A DNA stretch of 64,000 bases from Parcubacteria group bacterium Gr01-1014_8 (GTDB lineage Bacteria > Patescibacteriota > Minisyncoccia > Phycocordibacterales > UBA2100), in contig VMGC01000003.1 of the NCBI GenBank assembly GCA_007376385.1, forward strand, positions 37,271 to 101,270, read 5' to 3'. Every line of letters begins with the position of its first letter. Positions within the stretch are counted from its first letter, which is position 1. The position numbers and the translations under genes were made by a program. Shown piece after piece: positions 3,397 to 47,857 of the stretch. The notes beneath the pieces are model-generated. The model ran no database searches. It was given only the letters and a program-made list of their open reading frames with translations, and had not been told where the DNA came from.

Positions 3397-4638
3397 ATGG
3401 CTGTCGTAAATCCGTTCACGTCATATATTGAACGCCTCGCACGCGCTGCGCGCGCCTTGGGACTCTCGGAAGTCGAAAAAAAACGATTGTCAGAGCCAAA
3501 CAACATTGTAGATACTCAGATAGAACTTACGCGTGATAATGGAACAGTAGAAAGACTCCGCACCTACCGCGTACAATTCAATAATGCACGCGGGCCGTAT
3601 AAAGGCGGGATCCGCTTTCACAAGGCGGCGGACTTAGACGAAGTAAAGGCGCTGGCTGCGGCCATGGCAATAAAGTGTGCGGTAGTTGATATTCCGATGG
3701 GAGGCGCTAAAGGAGGTGTCCAATTTGACCCAAAGCAATATTCAGAAGCGGAAATAGAGCGAGTCGCACGAGCATTCATCCGAGCTATGGGTGATGCAAT
3801 CGGCGCCGACAAAGATATTCCCGCGCCAGACGTATACACCAACAGCAACATAATGGGCATCATGCTGGATGAGTTTCAAAAAATGCACGGCCGAAATGAA
3901 CCCGCCATGATAACGGGAAAGCCGCAGGGACTCGGCGGAATAGTCGGTCGTGACACAGCTACAGCACAAGGCGGTGTGTATGTGCTCGATTACTTTGTGA
4001 GTGCTCTTGGTTTCAAGAAAAAAGGTCTGCGCGTCGCAATACAAGGGTTTGGGAATGCGGGGGCTACCGCTGCAAAGATCTTGAGCGGAGATGGACACAG
4101 TATCGTCGGCATTTCCGATAGCAGCGGAGCTCTCCTATTCGAAACTGGGCTGGACATAGACAAACTCCTTCTTGAAAAAAACAAAAGCGGCGAGTTAAAA
4201 GATACGCGTGCAAGAATCGCAACAAATCAGGAGCTATTAGAAACGGACTGTGATGTTTTGATACCTGCCGCACTCGACAATCAACTGACCGTTGAAAATG
4301 CGCCTCGGGTAAAAGCAAAAATAATACTGGAATTGGCCAACGGGCCAACTACTCCGGAGGCGGACGTGATTTTCGGGCAACGAGACATTACTGTCATCCC
4401 CGATGTACTAACTAACGCGGGGGGAGTTACCGTATCCTATTTTGAATGGCTGCAAAATCGGGAAGGAAGCATCTGGTCGGAAGAAAAAGTACGCGAGCAA
4501 TTGAAAGAAATAATGACAAAAGCATCCGGCGTTCTATGGAAAAAATCAAAGGAACTGAATGTCCCCCTCCGAGATGCGGCGTTCCTTCTTGGCGTTGAAC
4601 GAATTGTGAGTGCTATGAGGACCCGGAGGGCTGTCTAA
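3397..4638 (+). CDS. gdhA: glutamate dehydrogenase (Glu/Leu/Phe/Val dehydrogenase family)
   Basis: Catalytic lysine box DIPMGGAKGGVQFDP, Rossmann motif GFGNAGATAA, 413 aa. Confidence 0.9.
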   Translation: MAVVNPFTSYIERLARAARALGLSEVEKKRLSEPNNIVDTQIELTRDNGTVERLRTYRVQFNNARGPYKGGIRFHKAADLDEVKALAAAMAIKCAVVDIPMGGAKGGVQFDPKQYSEAEIERVARAFIRAMGDAIGADKDIPAPDVYTNSNIMGIMLDEFQKMHGRNEPAMITGKPQGLGGIVGRDTATAQGGVYVLDYFVSALGFKKKGLRVAIQGFGNAGATAAKILSGDGHSIVGISDSSGALLFETGLDIDKLLLEKNKSGELKDTRARIATNQELLETDCDVLIPAALDNQLTVENAPRVKAKIILELANGPTTPEADVIFGQRDITVIPDVLTNAGGVTVSYFEWLQNREGSIWSEEKVREQLKEIMTKASGVLWKKSKELNVPLRDAAFLLGVERIVSAMRTRRAV

Positions 4639-4639
4639 C

Positions 4640-4657
4640 GCGCGAGTGAAGGGACTT
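4640..4657. repeat. 18-bp copy of the tRNA-Asp 3' end (T-stem 3' strand plus acceptor 3' strand)
   Basis: GCGCGAGTGAAGGGACTT here versus GCGCGGAGTGAAGGGACTT at 4796-4815 inside the tRNA-Asp gene. Confidence 0.5.
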
Positions 4658-4760
4658 TTTCTCCCCCGCTTTGCATTTGCAAAGCTCCTCCGAAACCGGC
4701 CGCCCTCGCTCGAACCAGTGGCGCTCGGGTCGGCTTCAAGTCCCGTTTTGCATAGCAAAA

Positions 4761-4787
4761 CAAAAGAGTCCCATAGTGGGACTCTTT
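4761..4787. terminator. bidirectional intrinsic terminator hairpin (AAAAGAGTCCCA-TAG-TGGGACTCTTTT)
   Basis: Perfect 12-bp stem with A/T runs on both sides, immediately 3' of tRNA-Asp. Confidence 0.55.
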
Positions 4788-4796
4788 TGTCTCGCT

Positions 4797-4871
4797 GCGC
4801 GAGTGAAGGGACTTGAACCCTCGACCTTTCCCGTGACAGGGGAACGCTCTAACCAGCTGAGCTACACCCGC
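4797..4871 (-). tRNA. tRNA-Asp (anticodon GUC)
   Basis: Acceptor GCGGGTG, D-arm GCTCAGCTGGTTAGAGC, anticodon loop CTGTCAC, T-arm GAGGG-TTCAAGT-CCCTT. The acceptor 3' strand CACTCCGC has one extra C (a bulge) compared with the remnant copy at 4640-4657. Confidence 0.7.
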
Positions 4872-4959
4872 AAGTGAGGAACAAAGAGATGCGTGCACGC
4901 TCTTTTTCCGGACGCCGCGGGTGCATCCTAAACACATCCCGCAAGGCCCGTACAATATA

Positions 4960-5223
4960 TCACTTACGCCTCTTTTTCAAACCTTTATGACCTAAGAGAT
5001 ATTTAACGACATCGATACCCGAAACAGCGGCCCACACGCTATTTGTGAGCATGAACGGAACTACTCCTTGATCATACGCGTAGACGAAAAGACCTACCCC
5101 ACTCACAAAATTGATGAAGTCATACCAAAAACTTTCCGCCTTAAGTTTGCCGTACTCGTTGGCGATAAACGCGGAAAGAGTAAGGAGGGCAGATGCAATG
5201 CCCAGGATTTCTATGCTACTCAC
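4960..5223 (-). CDS. small integral membrane protein (hypothetical, GTG start with AAGG SD)
   Basis: 87 aa with two TM segments and a K/R-rich tail. It starts about 20 nt downstream of tRNA-Met. Confidence 0.5.
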   Translation of the reverse strand: MSSIEILGIASALLTLSAFIANEYGKLKAESFWYDFINFVSGVGLFVYAYDQGVVPFMLTNSVWAAVSGIDVVKYLLGHKGLKKRRK

Positions 5224-5242
5224 CTTAGTATTCTACTACAGG

Positions 5243-5316
5243 TGCTGGGGGACGGGATCGAACCGTCGACCTAGCGCTTATGAAACGCTCGCTCTAACCG
5301 ACTGAGCTACCCCAGC
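5243..5316 (-). tRNA. tRNA-Met elongator (anticodon CAU). Could be tRNA-Ile2 if lysidinylated.
   Basis: Acceptor GCTGGGG/CCCCAGC, anticodon loop TTCATAA, T-arm GACGG-TTCGATC-CCGTC. Confidence 0.8.
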
Positions 5317-5357
5317 GTTTCGCCAGAATAGCATTTTTGACAGGCGACTCAACTATT

Positions 5358-5373
5358 TTGTTGCGGGGGCGGG
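5358..5373. repeat. 16-bp copy of the initiator tRNA 3' end (TTGTTGCGGGGGCGGG)
   Basis: Identical to 5557-5572, the 3' end of the tRNA-fMet gene. Confidence 0.5.
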
Positions 5374-5520
5374 CTTGGTCAGGAATAATTCGCTTGCCGA
5401 CGCAAGCGAATTTTCACGACCCTGGCTCGCAGTCTCGCGCGCGCTCGACATCGCTCCGCCTTGCAAGTCCCGACGAGAAGTGCGAAGGCACTTCTCTCCC
5501 CCGCACAACCCGATCACAGC

Positions 5521-5548
5521 AAAAAATCCGCGCGAGGCGGATTTTTTG
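5521..5548. terminator. bidirectional intrinsic terminator (AAAAAATCCGC-GCGAG-GCGGATTTTTT)
   Basis: Perfect GC-rich stem flanked by A6 and T6, directly 3' of tRNA-fMet. Confidence 0.6.
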
Positions 5549-5556
5549 CTGTACTT

Positions 5557-5629
5557 GTTGCGGGGGCGGGACTTGCACCCGCGACCTTCAGGTTATGAGC
5601 CTGACGAGCTACTACTGCTCCACCCCGCT
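5557..5629 (-). tRNA. initiator tRNA-fMet (anticodon CAU)
   Basis: Near-identical architecture to E. coli tRNAfMet (AGCGGGGTGGAGCAG...CTCATAA...CCCCCGCAAC) with an unpaired 1:72 (A:A). Confidence 0.8.
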
Positions 5630-5826
5630 ACAGATGATGATACCGCGATTGAGACTCCGAACGCAAGCGAATTTTATTTGCGACGTAGAGCGAGTGAAAT
5701 GCAAAAGAGCACTTTTGCATTTCCGAGCCGAGGAGCAAACACAGGTTCAATACCTCGCAGCTTTGCTGCGAGACAGGGCGAGCGAAGCGAGCTCCATAAT
5801 ACCTCGGGGCTTGCTCCGAGGGACCT

Positions 5827-6516
5827 TTATTCAATATATTTGAATTCTCTAAAAACGCGCTCATACATTCGTATCACGCGTTTTGCTTCGCGCGCATCAA
5901 GCTGAACATTTGCACTATCGTGCACAACACGATTTCTTATTTTGTGAGCTTCCCACGCGAAATCGATCGAATTGAATGCCTCAATAGGAATTTGCTTCAT
6001 TTTATCTGCCATTGTTTCCCCTTTATATCCGAGCACATCCAAGAGGTCATTCAGCATGATATCCGCTTCAAGTATGGCAAGCCGCCATTTTTCCACATCT
6101 TCTGAATTCACCTGCTCCCAAATTCGACGCCAGCGAAGCTGTGTCCTAGACAGATCTTGGCTGACAATTGGTCGAGCACCGGCAGCCATAGCTGTTCGCT
6201 CAATGCGGCGTATCTGCAGGATGCGCACAACGCAATAGATGATGCCGGCGCCAAGGACAAGTGAAAGAAATGTTGCAAGGGGAAATATCGGCCCCCAGAA
6301 ATTTAGGATCGTATCGACTGACCAGCCGGTCGTCACCTCCTGCTGTATCGACTGCACGATTGGCGTTGGCTCCGGATAGACACTGGGATCATAGGTAAAG
6401 GGCGAGGGCGGCGGTGCGTCTCCGTAGCCCGCATCATAGAACCACGCCAAGGTAACGCTCTCAAAAAAATGAACTACTGCCCAGTAGGCATCTCCAAGTG
6501 AACTTCCTCCATTCAT
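5827..6516 (-). CDS. membrane-anchored protein with a C-terminal HEPN-like helical domain (hypothetical)
   Basis: One central TM helix (FWGPIFPLATFLSLVLGAGIIYCVV). The C-terminal 110 aa carry an Rx4H motif (HKIRNRVVHDS). No family assignment is possible by eye. Confidence 0.5.
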   Translation of the reverse strand: MNGGSSLGDAYWAVVHFFESVTLAWFYDAGYGDAPPPSPFTYDPSVYPEPTPIVQSIQQEVTTGWSVDTILNFWGPIFPLATFLSLVLGAGIIYCVVRILQIRRIERTAMAAGARPIVSQDLSRTQLRWRRIWEQVNSEDVEKWRLAILEADIMLNDLLDVLGYKGETMADKMKQIPIEAFNSIDFAWEAHKIRNRVVHDSANVQLDAREAKRVIRMYERVFREFKYIE

Positions 6517-6525
6517 TCGCCTATT

Positions 6526-7941
6526 CTACCGCGTTTGTTCAATATCCTTGCCGATTGTAAACAACATCTCTTCCCCACCATGCGAACCAATGGCTTGAAA
6601 GCCTACTGGGAGCTCTTTCCCATCGCGAGTGACAGTACCCGCGGGCACAGATATCGCAGGAACGCCTGCAAGATTTACAGGTACGGTGAAAATATCTGCC
6701 GCGTACATAGCGAGAGGATCGTCCGATTTTTCTCCGATCTTAAACGCGGGAATTGGCGATGTGGGTGTTGCAACAGCATCAACCGATTCAAATGCTTTTT
6801 TAAAATCCTCACGGACGAGGGAGCGAACAGCACGAGCCTTACGATAGTACGCGTCAGCGTAACCCGATGAGAGCACAAATGTTCCTACTAAGATCCGGCG
6901 CCTGGCTTCGGGACCGAATCCACGTCCTCGCGTTTTTGTGTATACATCTCCTATTGTTTCTGCGGGTTCAGAAAGACCATAACGTATACCGTCAAAGCGC
7001 GCCAGATTCGTAGACACTTCGGCCGGATTAATAATGTAGTACACAGCAAGAGAGTATGTGAGATTCGGCAATTCGATGTCTCGGATCTCATACCCTGCTT
7101 TCCGCAAATTATTGAGCACACTCTCGAACCGCAAAGATACATCTTTTTCCACTCCACTTGAGACGAACGCGCGAGGTACCCCTATCACCTTCGGCTTTTT
7201 TACGTACACAGCTGTATCCGGAAGCGACGTACTGTCGTTAGTATCGTGCCCTCGTATCGCGTTAAACACAGCCTCAACATCGCCGACTGTTTTGCCGATG
7301 GGGCCGATCTGATCAAGAGATGACGCAGCTGCCATTAATCCGAAGCGCGACACTGCACCGTACGTTGGTTTCAAACCGACAACACCGCAAAGAGCCGCGG
7401 GCTGGCGAATTGAGCCGCCAGTGTCACTTCCGAGACCGACCAGAGCCATATTCGCCGCAACCGCCGCCGCAGGTCCTCCCGACGTCCCGCCAGCAACACG
7501 CGATGTATCGTACGGATTCTTGGTTACGCCATACGCTGAATTTTCCGTCGAGGAGCCAAGAGCAAATTCATCCATATTTGCTCGTCCCAAAAATACCGCT
7601 CCCTCATTTTTTAGCTTTGTTGTTACGGTTGCATCATACGAAGCTACATAGCTCTCCAATATCTTGGAGGCAGCGCTCGCATGTCGCCCTTTTATTAAAA
7701 TATTGTCTTTTATCGCAACAGGAATTCCAGTAAGAGATAATGCATTGCCTTCTCGTATGCGTTCGTCCGCTTCTTGTGCTTCAGCGAGCGCTGTTTCCGC
7801 CCATACTTCTAAATACGCATGAATATCAGGGTCGCGCAGGGCTATCTCTTTTAAATAGGCTTCGGTTAGTTCTCTCGCTGAAAATTTCTTGGCATCGAGT
7901 GCGCGTCTGGCCTCCATAACCGTAAGTGCTGATAGTTCCAT
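6526..7941 (-). CDS. gatA: Glu-tRNA(Gln)/Asp-tRNA(Asn) amidotransferase subunit A
   Basis: Amidase signature GGTSGGPAAAVAA, 471 aa, followed by gatC. Confidence 0.9.
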   Translation of the reverse strand: MELSALTVMEARRALDAKKFSARELTEAYLKEIALRDPDIHAYLEVWAETALAEAQEADERIREGNALSLTGIPVAIKDNILIKGRHASAASKILESYVASYDATVTTKLKNEGAVFLGRANMDEFALGSSTENSAYGVTKNPYDTSRVAGGTSGGPAAAVAANMALVGLGSDTGGSIRQPAALCGVVGLKPTYGAVSRFGLMAAASSLDQIGPIGKTVGDVEAVFNAIRGHDTNDSTSLPDTAVYVKKPKVIGVPRAFVSSGVEKDVSLRFESVLNNLRKAGYEIRDIELPNLTYSLAVYYIINPAEVSTNLARFDGIRYGLSEPAETIGDVYTKTRGRGFGPEARRRILVGTFVLSSGYADAYYRKARAVRSLVREDFKKAFESVDAVATPTSPIPAFKIGEKSDDPLAMYAADIFTVPVNLAGVPAISVPAGTVTRDGKELPVGFQAIGSHGGEEMLFTIGKDIEQTR

Positions 7942-7943
7942 AC

Positions 7944-10264
<2,321 letters not shown>

Positions 10265-27884: not shown

Positions 27885-27969
27885 AGGGAGGTCCCCTTTG
27901 TTGTCTCCTCGGCTCGGAAATACGAGAAGTTCTGCTCTCACATTCCTCTCGCAACGCTCGCCAATGGTC

Positions 27970-29666: not shown

Positions 29667-29912
29667 AACAATCCGCCCACAAGGACACTTTGGAAACACC
29701 ACAAGAGTACTTCAGAAAATATACTCGTGCCACTCGTTATTTTCTTGGTCACACCTCAAGGGTACTTCCATTTTTCTAAGCCGGAGTACCGGCAAGAAAA
29801 ATTGGTCGCCCACGGTTTTCCAACGGGCTTCGCCCTGCCTTCCTCCACGGGAAACAAAGTGTTTCCCCGACCCCCTTCCTGTCCAAGCGGGCGTCCATTC
29901 ATTTCATTCATG

Positions 29913-29986
29913 TCCGCCCGCTTGGACTCGAACCAAGGACCCTCGAGGTATAAGCTCGATGCTCTAACCAACTGAGCTACGGGCGG
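29913..29986 (-). tRNA. tRNA-Ile (anticodon UAU, reads AUA)
   Basis: Acceptor CCGCCCG/CGGGCGG, anticodon stem ATCGA/TCGAG, loop CTTATAC (anticodon TAT), T-arm CTTGG-TTCGAGT-CCAAG. Confidence 0.65.
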
Positions 29987-45205: not shown

Positions 45206-47857
45206 CTACCGAGGCCGCGTTCCGGACTCCTTGGCTATGTACGAGGCAAGGCCGCCAGGTCTCGAGTAAGCGTACACGTCTTTTATTCCCATATCGTGGG
45301 CGAGCATCAAAACCATCTCTATCAATTGACTCGAAACCGGTGCATCCGGCGTTATCACGATATCGTCCGAAGGAGTCGGATATTTGAGAAGCATGTTGTA
45401 TCCAAGAGAGCTTTCGTCTTCCGGTCTGCTATTAGGAATAACATCAACAAGTGACGCGCCCTCCCTCTGTCCGCCTTTTGGTTTCTTGTGGAATCGCATG
45501 ACCGGATCATGCCCGGCATGAAGGTACTTTCGAACCTCCTCGGCATTTAGGGTACGCGTTACTTTTGGGATCGGCTTTTGCTGATAATCGGACGAGCAGA
45601 TAGATATGCAGACGAGAGCATTGCCATGAGGATCGAGAACGGCAGGCGTCAATAATGCATCATAGGTCGTATGCAAGAGTGCGTTGGCTGAAAGGCTTGT
45701 GCGTGCGATCGCTATCTGCCCAAGAAGGTTATCCTTTTCATCAGCGGCAAGAATGACAAGATGCTTCTGTATGTTCTTTTCATACTCGCTCTTCTCCGGC
45801 GAAAGATTGTCCCAGCACTGTCGGTACAACTCATACGAGGGAGCCATCCATCGTGAATATCGGTGAAGAATGGTAAACCGGATTATCGGTTTCTGGACTC
45901 CTCGGCTCGGAGATGTGGAAACTGTGTTTTCCCACCTCCCTCGCTCTACGTCGCCGGTAAAACGACGTGCCGGCATTTTGAGAAGTCCGAATATTGATTC
46001 AAAACGCTCGTAGGGCAATGTCTTCTTCAAAACGCTCCGCTGCACTTTGCCCGTCGACGTCATCGGCAATTCGTCAGCGGAAAAAGAGGTGAGATACTTC
46101 GGCGTCTCATATGCGCTTAAGTACGCCGTGCCGAATAGAAGCGACAACTTGAGCCGACGTTTGGCCTTCTTCTCATCTGTACCCGCTTTCCAGCAAATGA
46201 CCGCGCCCGCCTCTTCTCCGTAGCGCTCATCGGGAACAGCAACAACGTACACCTGGTCGATCTCAGGAGATATCTTTTTCAAGGCATTCTCAAGAGCAAC
46301 GGGCGAGATGTTAACCCCGCCCTTGATGATGATCTCCCGCTTGCGGCCCTTCAGATAGAAGAATTTCTGCTCGCCAACGACCTTAAAATATCCGATGTCG
46401 CCCGAGAGAAAATATCCGCCTGCCTGCCGCGTCCGACCAGCGCTATATTCACGTCTTAACCATTTTCGACCAAACCCTGTTTTTAAGTTTTTCTCCCGCT
46501 GTACCGCTTCTTTCAACGATGGAAATTCTTCGTGGTGAATAATTCCTATCGGTTTATGCTTTTTGGTGTGCTCGGCGGCTATACCGTTATAATGTTGTCG
46601 CCATCGTTCATGTATATCTTGAGTTTGACCGATATAAAATGAACCATCATCACACTTGATGACATAAACATAGAACATTTCTGGTCGCGGCGCAGGCAGG
46701 TCACGGATGGCCGGCTCATTCGTAACATACCCCTCCATAACGGCAGGCCCGCGTATCACCAGTTCACCTTCTTCTCCTTCACCGAGAAAGTTTCCTTTCT
46801 CATCCGATATCTGCACGTCGGCCCATGACATTGCCGAGCCAATAGAATTTTCCTCTATCAGTTTCTCGTATAGACCAGGGGGCAGTCCCATAGGTACCCC
46901 GGTAACGCGAAGCGCTGTTTCAGTCTGCCCATATCCTTGGTAGAGCGGAATATCGAATTTCGTCATGAACTCTTGCATCGTATGCACGACCACAGGAGCC
47001 GAGCCTATTTGGATGCGATTGAGCCGCAATCCTTTTTTAACGAGCGCGTAACTCTCGGAGCGTCCTACTTGATCGAACAGGATGGATTGCACTATTGATG
47101 TGCAGGTTGCCTGACTTTTCGCAGCCTGCTGCCAGAAATGTGAGTTTGAGTAATTCGGCGTGATCGCAATGCTGCCGCCTGCGAGAAGCGCCGACAGGCA
47201 AAATGTGGTGGAATTTATGTGGTGCAACGGGAGGTTTACCAGAAACCTGTCTTCTTCTGTCATGTGAAGCCATTCCTTGATGCCTTCTGCGTTCACAACA
47301 AGGTTATTGAGAGTCAGTTTTGCTCCTTTTGGATACCCTGTAGTCCCTGATGTAAATAAAATAAGGGCACAATGTGAAAGACCGGATTCCCAGGCTACCG
47401 GTCTATCTGTAATATCGGCAAATCCCGCAAATTCCTGGACTTTGACTTCTTTCAAAAAAATACTCTCAATATTTTTAAGCGCCTCCTTTTCTGCTATCAA
47501 TAATGTTGCGTTGTTTATTTTTAATTTGTATTGATACAACTCGCCGGTATCTCGCTTAGTATCGAGTGGAACAGTTACGACTCCGATACTCCACGCAGCC
47601 CAGCTTATTATGAGGAGTTCGGGCGAATTCTTAAATGCGAGAGCTACTCTATCGCCTCGTTTGATATCAAGCGCGTATAAATAGAGCGCAGCCTGTTTGA
47701 TTTTCTGCAGCAATTCTTTGTACGTGATCTCCCCCGAGATCGTTCCTTCGTGATCACACGAGAGGAGCGCGACTTTTCCCGGATTCTTTTGCGAGAGAGC
47801 AGAAATGTGCGAGTAGAGGCTTTGTATGGAAGCATGCTGCATAACAATCATCCTCAA
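45206..47857 (-). CDS. AMP-dependent synthetase/ligase (ANL superfamily) with an in-frame GIY-YIG nuclease domain insertion and a roughly 280-aa C-terminal domain of unknown function
   Basis: AMP-binding motif LFTSGTTGYPKGA, core GYGQTE, and the C-subdomain motif GGYFLSGDIGYF...GRKREIIIKGGVNISPVALE. Between them, about aa 388-478 are a complete GIY-YIG module (FYVYVIKCDDGSFYIGQT...R...E...N). The ORF is continuous, 883 aa. Confidence 0.7.
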   Translation of the reverse strand: MRMIVMQHASIQSLYSHISALSQKNPGKVALLSCDHEGTISGEITYKELLQKIKQAALYLYALDIKRGDRVALAFKNSPELLIISWAAWSIGVVTVPLDTKRDTGELYQYKLKINNATLLIAEKEALKNIESIFLKEVKVQEFAGFADITDRPVAWESGLSHCALILFTSGTTGYPKGAKLTLNNLVVNAEGIKEWLHMTEEDRFLVNLPLHHINSTTFCLSALLAGGSIAITPNYSNSHFWQQAAKSQATCTSIVQSILFDQVGRSESYALVKKGLRLNRIQIGSAPVVVHTMQEFMTKFDIPLYQGYGQTETALRVTGVPMGLPPGLYEKLIEENSIGSAMSWADVQISDEKGNFLGEGEEGELVIRGPAVMEGYVTNEPAIRDLPAPRPEMFYVYVIKCDDGSFYIGQTQDIHERWRQHYNGIAAEHTKKHKPIGIIHHEEFPSLKEAVQREKNLKTGFGRKWLRREYSAGRTRQAGGYFLSGDIGYFKVVGEQKFFYLKGRKREIIIKGGVNISPVALENALKKISPEIDQVYVVAVPDERYGEEAGAVICWKAGTDEKKAKRRLKLSLLFGTAYLSAYETPKYLTSFSADELPMTSTGKVQRSVLKKTLPYERFESIFGLLKMPARRFTGDVERGRWENTVSTSPSRGVQKPIIRFTILHRYSRWMAPSYELYRQCWDNLSPEKSEYEKNIQKHLVILAADEKDNLLGQIAIARTSLSANALLHTTYDALLTPAVLDPHGNALVCISICSSDYQQKPIPKVTRTLNAEEVRKYLHAGHDPVMRFHKKPKGGQREGASLVDVIPNSRPEDESSLGYNMLLKYPTPSDDIVITPDAPVSSQLIEMVLMLAHDMGIKDVYAYSRPGGLASYIAKESGTRPR

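Follow-up and report, generated by a model that had tools for sequence, protein, structure and literature searches.

A predicted membrane-anchored HEPN protein at the end of the ligA-gatC-gatA gene string of Parcubacteria/Paceibacteria, and a structured element linked to the neighbouring initiator tRNA

The 64,000-nt stretch of the genome of Parcubacteria group bacterium Gr01-1014_8 analysed here (contig VMGC01000003.1; hereafter the window, to whose positions all feature coordinates refer) carries a gene string of ligA, gatC and gatA, followed on the same strand by an open reading frame (ORF) of 229 amino acids (aa), an initiator-type tRNA-Met and a set of short repeats (Table 1). The initial annotation, made from the letters alone, had described the ORF product as a single-pass membrane protein with a HEPN-like domain, and had taken it for an Abi-like effector at a repeat-marked tRNA locus. 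The ORF is present on the minus strand with the peptide stretches that were quoted for it, and its product matches NCBI protein G01um10148_638 ('Parcubacteria group bacterium Gr01-1014_8') exactly. A protein collection clustered at 90% contains 1378 homologues (E <= 1e-3); given these and the exact NCBI match, the ORF is a real gene. The family profile matched 2598 clusters at 50% identity, 695 of them with E <= 1e-30. All named sources of the family are Parcubacteria/Paceibacteria, and the lineage names among the best 80 loci are Kaiserbacteria, Paceibacterota, Minisyncoccia, Nomurabacteria or Parcubacteria. No paralogue of the protein was found within the 64-kb window.

Table 1. Positions of the genes, protein segments, tRNA and repeat features discussed in the text.
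Feature	Position in window	Strand	Evidence
Membrane-anchored HEPN protein gene (predicted), 229 aa	5827..6516, stop included	-	ORF, ATG start, NCBI match, homologues
Transmembrane helix (predicted), residues 77-97 (IFPLATFLSLVLGAGIIYCVV)	6226..6288	-	Kyte-Doolittle, flank charges, AlphaFold2 helix
Cytoplasmic HEPN domain (predicted), residues 124-224	5845..6147	-	
Rx4H motif R194-N-R-V-V-H199, end of helix 3	5920..5937	-	Sequence, conservation, canonical position (PMC3710099)
gatA (amidase)	6526..7941	-	Pfam Amidase, 479 bits; same position in 79/80 loci
gatC	7944..8255	-	Pfam GatC; conserved
ligA (NAD-dependent DNA ligase), upstream in same gene string	8252..10255	-	Pfam; conserved
tRNA-Met(CAU), 73 nt, initiator type	5557..5629	-	ARAGORN; Rfam tRNA, 60.8 bits; conserved neighbour
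Terminator-like perfect 16-bp hairpin, A run / T run (ACAGCAAAAAATCCGC / GCGGATTTTTTGCTGT)	5516..5552	.	Inverted repeat
Second ACGCAAGCGAATTTT copy, in 197-nt gene-tRNA spacer	5661..5675	.	Spacer homologous to L049
tRNA-linked structured element, type-1 core, ~150 nt	5357..5504	-	R1, 139.8 bits; RNAfold; covariation
18-nt exact copy of tRNA-Asp (4797-4871) 3' end, second weaker element	4640..4657	-	143 nt downstream of tRNA-Asp
Third element, type-3 core, after tRNA-Ile(UAU) 29912-29986	29800..29895 (approximate)	-	

The protein has a sole strongly hydrophobic segment on the Kyte-Doolittle scale, the transmembrane (TM) helix, for which the best 19-aa windows begin at residues 77-84 and have a mean of about 2.1; the N-terminal helix at residues 7-28 peaks at 0.85. 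In the AlphaFold2 (AF2) model the TM helix runs on as a juxtamembrane helix to about residue 114 (helix 77-114, predicted local distance difference test [pLDDT] 83-97). The net charge is -8 over the 74 residues before the TM helix and +4 over the 21 residues after it, the flank charges being -2/+4, and these charges on either side argue for an N-out, C-in orientation. The protein is thus predicted to expose an acidic N-terminal tail to the outside, to cross the membrane once and to hold its HEPN domain in the cytoplasm, a topology that agrees with the extracytoplasmic N-terminus and single helix that had been proposed from the letters.

The C-terminal domain had been likened to HEPN nucleases on account of an Rx4H motif, and this resemblance was borne out by fold, motif position and conservation. 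The AF2 model (pLDDT 84 overall and >90 across most of the C-terminal domain) has HEPN helices at residues 124-136, 141-162, 184-199 and 208-224, and the top three Foldseek matches to it in the PDB are all HEPN or HEPN-like. In the published definition of the HEPN superfamily an Rx4-6H motif closes helix 3, helix 2 bears an acidic residue and an insert lies between helices 2 and 3 (PMC3710099). All three are found here: R194-x4-H199 closes helix 3, E150 and D152 lie on helix 2, and the insert comprises residues 163-183, with a short helix at 169-174. The model also forms the expected four-helix up-down bundle of two alpha-hairpins. Residue conservation, computed over 268 family members, is concentrated on the same positions; H191, R194, N195 and D152 are invariant (268/268), while H199 is present in 257/268 (96%) and E150 likewise in 96%. 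The predicted catalytic-type set E150/D152, H191 and R194-N195-x3-H199 is therefore one that, as judged from the aligned sequences, is under strong purifying selection.

When 102 diverse members were scanned individually, HEPN families were matched, all below threshold: HEPN_Swt1 in 46 members (best E 8.8e-4), HEPN_RiboL-PSP in 23, the pEK499_p136 HEPN family in nine and DUF4145 in only four. The NCBIfam scan of the ORF gave no match, and the family is covered by no Pfam or NCBIfam model. Neither the protein nor the family profile found a sequence relative in the PDB, the only matches being chance ones of the TM helix to G-protein-coupled receptors and butyrophilin.

One might ask whether the domain is a nuclease at all. 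It could instead be a scaffold, or a module tethered to the membrane that binds RNA, tRNA or nucleotides; it might, for example, position GatCA(B) or tRNA at the membrane. Inactive HEPN families usually lose the R/H motif (PMC3710099), whereas here R194 and N195 are invariant, H199 is almost so and the helix-2 acidic residues are kept; nothing, moreover, points to a contact with GatCA. We consider a non-nuclease role improbable, though not negligible.

What is conserved in this family is the module of TM helix, juxtamembrane helix and HEPN domain, while the part before the TM helix varies from about 30 aa to >500 aa; protein lengths in the family run from 128 to 696 aa (median 223). Long members of 450-700 aa (P0168, P0178, P0213 and P0154; loci L085 and L086) are still encoded directly after gatA. 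Long forms open with a short basic segment and a TM helix of their own, continue with repeats of the GERYWYVDFESGPDGWV type that may extend over some 500 aa, and close with the second TM helix and the HEPN domain. Bacterial SH3 domains are what these repeats resemble (SH3_3 in P0178, 42.7 bits). This arrangement lends independent support to a cytoplasmic location for the HEPN domain. The variable outer part is likely a binding or sensing module.

The position of the gene is as well conserved as its domain. In the window nine nucleotides separate the gatA stop codon from the ATG of the HEPN gene. In a survey of one genome per species, 234 loci encoding a relative were found, and the best 80 of these were analysed, upstream neighbours being assigned using the window's own proteins as queries. 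Of these 80 loci, which come from as many assemblies and all have upstream sequence, 79 have gatA immediately upstream in the same orientation; gatC, and usually ligA too, precede gatA. The same gatA-HEPN order is seen in two long contigs, in the nearest relatives (L207-L212) and in the divergent long forms (L085/L086); in the long forms P0154 and P0178 the start codon overlaps the gatA stop or follows it by 3 nt. The HEPN gene is thus a core, syntenic, vertically inherited and single-copy gene, the last cistron of ligA-gatC-gatA. The initial annotation had named two findings that would speak against it, the lack of a HEPN-like fold and a conserved syntenic position as a housekeeping membrane protein; the fold is present, and the conserved synteny is found as well, the gene being fixed after gatA. 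Its neighbours in the window are of a housekeeping kind and include, besides a release factor gene, gdh and ligA, tRNAs and pilin-like genes. No GatB signature turned up when all six reading frames of the window were searched by regular expression.

A few loci depart from the common pattern. L054 is the sole locus without an adjacent gatA, which there lies about 4.4 kb upstream and suggests an insertion between gatA and the HEPN gene. In a relative with 67% protein identity (L211 695-1021, L212 638-964) a gene of the ParE toxin family stands between gatC and gatA, and the rest of the gene string, HEPN gene included, is unchanged. The contigs of the nearest relatives (P0002, P0003 and P0005; L005 and L207-L212), which come from independent assemblies, end 1-120 nt past the HEPN gene. 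Such ends may reflect an assembly break at a repeated sequence downstream, namely the tRNA and the element described below.

On the other side of the HEPN gene, 197 nt downstream and on the same strand, lies the tRNA-Met, and the initial annotation was right to name an initiator tRNA there. It is of initiator type because of an A1.A72 mismatch, the Rfam tRNA model flagging the 1:72 pair as non-standard (A.A). The tRNA-fMet of E. coli has C1.A72 and three consecutive G:C pairs in the anticodon stem. The tRNA of the window has A1.A72 in place of the usual C1.A72 and retains only two of the three consecutive G:C pairs (A29:U41). A tRNA-Met is found within 1 kb downstream of the HEPN gene in 39 of the 70 loci with enough sequence; in 37 of these 39 it is the 73-nt form, and 25 of the 37 are on the same strand, mostly 40-60 nt past the stop codon. 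Often a second tRNA-Met, tRNA-Asp and tRNA-Thr then follow. The adjacent initiator tRNA is accordingly ancestral synteny. On its far side lies the 16-bp hairpin of Table 1, which from its sequence looks like a tRNA terminator.

The spacer between gene and tRNA (5630-5826) is, at 197 nt, longer than the 40-60 nt of most relatives and contains several hairpins. It includes a two-copy unit AATACCTCGNNGCTT (5749-5763 and 5798-5812), shows homology to the L049 spacer and, in part, to those of L052, L056 and L018, and has pieces of about 60 nt that are 75-78% similar to window positions 45898-45962 and 27895-27952.

Two kinds of repeat surround the tRNA. The 15-mer ACGCAAGCGAATTTT had been reported as exact direct repeats at 5398-5412 and 5660-5674; it is indeed exact, and its copies lie 1-2 nt further on, at 5400-5414 and 5661-5675. 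Allowing <=2 mismatches its expected count is 0.40, and 8/100 shuffles reach two matches; for two exact copies within 1.4 kb we estimate a chance of about 1e-3. The tRNA is, as had also been noticed, flanked by a copy of its own 3' end: the 16-nt TTGTTGCGGGGGCGGG occurs at 5555-5570 and again at 5358-5373 (expected count 0.01; 0/100 shuffles reach two). Neither the 15-mer nor the 16-mer was found elsewhere in the window.

A copy of a tRNA 3' end downstream of the tRNA is a classical mark of integration, and defence and toxin systems often contain HEPN domains (PMC3710099). On that reading the ORF would encode an abortive-infection or defence effector, an Abi-like HEPN toxin of the membrane that was taken up at a hot spot of integration into tRNA genes. 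The DNA between the two tRNA 3'-end copies, however, measures 181 bp and holds no gene; the HEPN gene lies outside it, 5' of the tRNA. A tRNA-targeted island would show an intact tRNA and a displaced 3' fragment on either side of an integrase and cargo; here the direct repeat is present, without such contents. The order gatC-gatA-HEPN is fixed in all but one of the surveyed loci, with the tRNA a conserved neighbour, and the HEPN domain keeps about 50-60% identity across the family, unlike fast-evolving toxins. Searches with the ORF gave no PADLOC family (0), no PHROG (0) and no BFVD viral fold with E < 0.15, and no MNT, antitoxin, integrase or defence gene is adjacent. The island implied at the outset therefore falls away, and we regard acquisition of a toxin at this tRNA as very unlikely.

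The repeats at 5357-5504 belong instead to a separate tRNA-linked structured element, undescribed in Rfam. It follows the tRNA and the terminator-like hairpin and, on the tRNA strand, is composed in order of a segment a', a hairpin, a segment t', a core and the direct copy of the tRNA 3' end. Segment a' (5498-5505) is antisense to the 3' strand of the tRNA acceptor, and t' (5464-5472) to the T-loop and the 3' strand of the T-stem. The core consists of two hairpins in a three-way junction, and the 15-mer copy at 5400-5414 is one arm of the second. RNAfold gives the element a folding energy of -78 kcal/mol (z -5.5).

Similar blocks of about 130-200 nt stand directly after initiator Met, Asp, elongator Met, Val, Thr and Ile-UAU tRNAs in the window and in related genomes (loci L001-L084; for example L053 9159-9308, L077 6776-6924 and L050 downstream of the tRNA at 7391-7463). 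Around its core each carries the final 14-25 nt of its own tRNA in inverted and often also in direct form; flanks of this kind are found with at least three unrelated cores. Counted over the tRNA genes of the window plus related loci, an exact 14-nt copy of the tRNA's own 3' end lies 114-202 nt downstream in 24 of 163 genes and upstream in none. With looser criteria (162 genes) a direct copy of >=10 nt is found downstream in 40 and an inverted copy of >=9 nt in 58, against two and two upstream. At least 7 of the 24 have a second terminator beyond the 3'-end copy.

A covariance model, R1, was built from ten type-1 copies and searched against 865 kb, giving 56 matches with E < 1e-3. Of these, 49 follow a tRNA on the same strand, be it one for initiator Met, Asp, elongator Met or Val, at a distance of 0-58 nt, or in one case of 205 nt. 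A type-1-like element is carried by 33/50 initiator, 11/38 Asp and 13/45 elongator Met tRNAs. In the 49 aligned matches 92% of cells are paired, as compared with 68% in shuffles and <=52% with partners slid, and compensatory changes occur in 24 of 25 pairs, in an alignment fitted to the model, which favours its structure. The core helices contain 30 G.U as against 7 A.C appositions; this excess points to an RNA read on the tRNA strand. In tRNAs with a G.U pair in the acceptor stem, a' pairs with the tRNA 3' strand as its exact Watson-Crick complement and reaches over N73-C74, which suggests copying at the DNA level. Sites may be filled or empty: L051 is set apart from L055 and L057 by an insertion, about 170-190 nt long, that separates the tRNA from the convergent end of the HEPN gene. 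Core identity, compared within and between genomes with a view to recent mobility, had means of 0.55, 0.55 and 0.53; copying inside a genome is hinted at by L077 (0.79) and L022 (0.70) alone. Type-1 elements were also seen beside decayed or 5'-truncated initiator tRNA copies (L027, about 8600-8890; L060, about 4150-4481); L027 has, elsewhere in the locus, an intact initiator tRNA without an element.

The window holds two further elements. That of tRNA-Asp (about 4640-4760, minus strand) has a fold z of only -0.7 and no R1 match. The type-3 element begins its inverted copy, GCCCGCTTGGAC, 19 nt after tRNA-Ile. This tRNA-Ile, on the minus strand at 29912-29986, has a UAU anticodon; in most bacteria AUA is read by a lysidine-modified CAU tRNA.

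Rfam 15 has no family for the three core types, tRNA alone scoring above threshold in window 4500-5900 and in five loci with all three core types. Nor did a BLAST search of GenBank phages with the element give a match, and no recombinase, reverse transcriptase or nuclease gene is adjacent to the elements. At least 120 IMG/VR stretches match the loose pattern GGAGCGATGN{8,30}CGCGAG; R1 found no element in the 80 of these that were screened, so those matched by chance. Simple tandem duplication of a tRNA was rejected as the whole explanation, since the same layout is found behind different tRNAs in many species, around a core that is conserved and covaries. The group I introns of Patescibacteria tRNA genes, which sit at anticodon-loop position 35/36 (PMC13011429), are distinct from the element.

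Integrases that target tRNA genes leave attL/attR duplications. The elements share with these the direct copy of the tRNA's last 14-22 nt, which stops where the tRNA gene does and lies downstream of an intact tRNA, the occurrence of filled or empty sites and, in at least 7 of the 24 cases, a second terminator after the copy. They differ in that the insert is only about 130-200 bp without integrase or cargo, and in having an inverted copy of the same tRNA segment, strongly covarying core helices and no phage or viral match. The element may be an RNA gene mimicking the acceptor and T arms, a guide-like RNA, or a non-autonomous mini-insertion that supplies a tRNA 3' end and a terminator of its own.

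Taking the evidence on the protein together, we conclude that this is probably a membrane-anchored, vertically inherited HEPN protein of Parcubacteria/Paceibacteria, encoded last in ligA-gatC-gatA and having a housekeeping or regulatory function, not one in mobile anti-phage defence. By analogy with established HEPN biochemistry the domain would be a metal-independent endoribonuclease; as in other members of that superfamily, dimerisation would be needed to form the active site, and RNA would be cut at the inner face of the membrane. More speculatively, the ectodomain and juxtamembrane helix might couple an outside cue, such as the cell wall or contact with a host surface, to dimerisation and ribonuclease (RNase) activity. 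Dimerisation regulated by an ectodomain has been proposed, by analogy with Ire1, for other membrane HEPN proteins (Anantharaman et al. 2013, PMC3710099). Given its presumed cotranscription with gatCA and the initiator tRNA, tRNA-related RNA may be the obvious candidate substrate, although gene order alone does not establish it.

Several points weigh against such a housekeeping enzyme. No HEPN model of Pfam reaches its gathering score with this protein; the best, HEPN_Swt1 (PF18731), spans positions 7-112 of the 115-position profile at 13.3 bits (E 0.1), the gathering threshold being 27.5 bits. H199 is replaced by Q, K or N in 11 of the 268 members. RNase activity and dimerisation would, for every member, follow from family knowledge. 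The loci sampled are the best 80 of 234 matches only, and conserved gene order in the small genomes of the candidate phyla radiation (CPR) need not imply a functional link with gatCA. Finally, what the sequences show may also fit a suicide or defence RNase that has become chromosomally fixed.

As a kind, HEPN proteins associated with membranes have been known since 2013, in three published groups (PMC3710099, section 15). The present protein resembles the Abi2/Swt1-type group in having a single TM helix followed by a cytoplasmic HEPN domain with Rx4H, and HEPN_Swt1 is its closest resemblance in Pfam. Unlike that group it has no conserved globular all-alpha domain before the TM helix, its N-terminal part being variable, and unlike the DUF4145 group it lacks the WP signature (W74 in 177/268, 66%; P76 in 61/268, 23%). 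The published groups are scattered, whereas this family is confined to Parcubacteria/Paceibacteria and has a fixed place in the ligA-gatC-gatA string. What is new, therefore, is not the membrane HEPN protein as such but a fixed, slowly evolving core gene of one CPR class, and the tRNA-linked element is possibly the more novel of the two.

Other proteins invite comparison. The KEN domain of Ire1 and RNase L, a circularly permuted HEPN domain (PMC3710099), may offer a likeness, in that a HEPN-type RNase that is membrane-spanning (Ire1) or dimerised by a ligand becomes active on self-association; the comparison with Ire1 was drawn also in PMC3710099. The present protein differs in having no kinase domain and a canonical helix order, and the homology extends to the superfamily level only. 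HEPN-MNT toxins (PDB 5yep_B, 8xdj and 7ae2) differ more clearly, as no MNT or antitoxin gene is adjacent in the window or related loci, and the protein here is membrane-anchored by prediction, slowly evolving and syntenic. RNase Y is the membrane-anchored housekeeping endoribonuclease of Firmicutes. It may be a functional analogue, being a core gene product with an N-terminal TM anchor and a cytoplasmic endoribonuclease, although its catalytic KH and HD domains are unrelated to HEPN. Our literature search found no paper linking HEPN with Parcubacteria/Paceibacteria.

It is tempting to combine the two findings. In the strictest form, the HEPN protein and the elements that mimic tRNA 3' ends would constitute one system, the RNase acting on tRNA 3' ends and the elements serving as decoys, guides or regulators. 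The module of gatA, HEPN gene, initiator tRNA and element recurs, with R1-type elements after 33 of the 50 initiator tRNAs. The literature behind PDB 7ae2 reportedly describes some HEPN toxins as clipping tRNA 3' ends, which would suit this idea. Elements also follow Asp, elongator-Met, Val, Thr and Ile tRNAs away from the HEPN gene, however; the tRNA-plus-element module stands in either orientation relative to it, many loci have the HEPN gene without an adjacent element, and no data link the two. We find a single system scarcely credible. A broader combination, which we hold to be unlikely, is that the post-tRNA blocks are a new class of element and the membrane HEPN protein a lineage-defining RNase of Paceibacteria tied to tRNA metabolism by being cotranscribed with gatCA and the initiator tRNA. 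The blocks may then be structured RNAs or non-autonomous mini-insertions with ends built from their own tRNA, a new way of targeting or mimicking tRNA, and the HEPN RNase may be an RNA-processing or signalling enzyme acting on the tRNA-like RNAs of the elements.

If confirmed, the elements would be an unannotated and abundant family of structured RNAs or mini-insertions in Patescibacteria genomes, and they may account for the way in which the nearest relatives' short contigs break off just past the HEPN gene. Adjacency to a tRNA and the presence of repeats do not indicate mobility at this locus, which removes a false positive from catalogues of defence islands. HEPN RNases are known mostly as toxins and immune effectors. 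Were the housekeeping or regulatory role correct, the protein would give ultra-small, host-dependent bacteria a counterpart to signalling of the Ire1 type or to RNA decay at the membrane, and would provide a testable candidate for the coupling of cell-surface contact to RNA metabolism.

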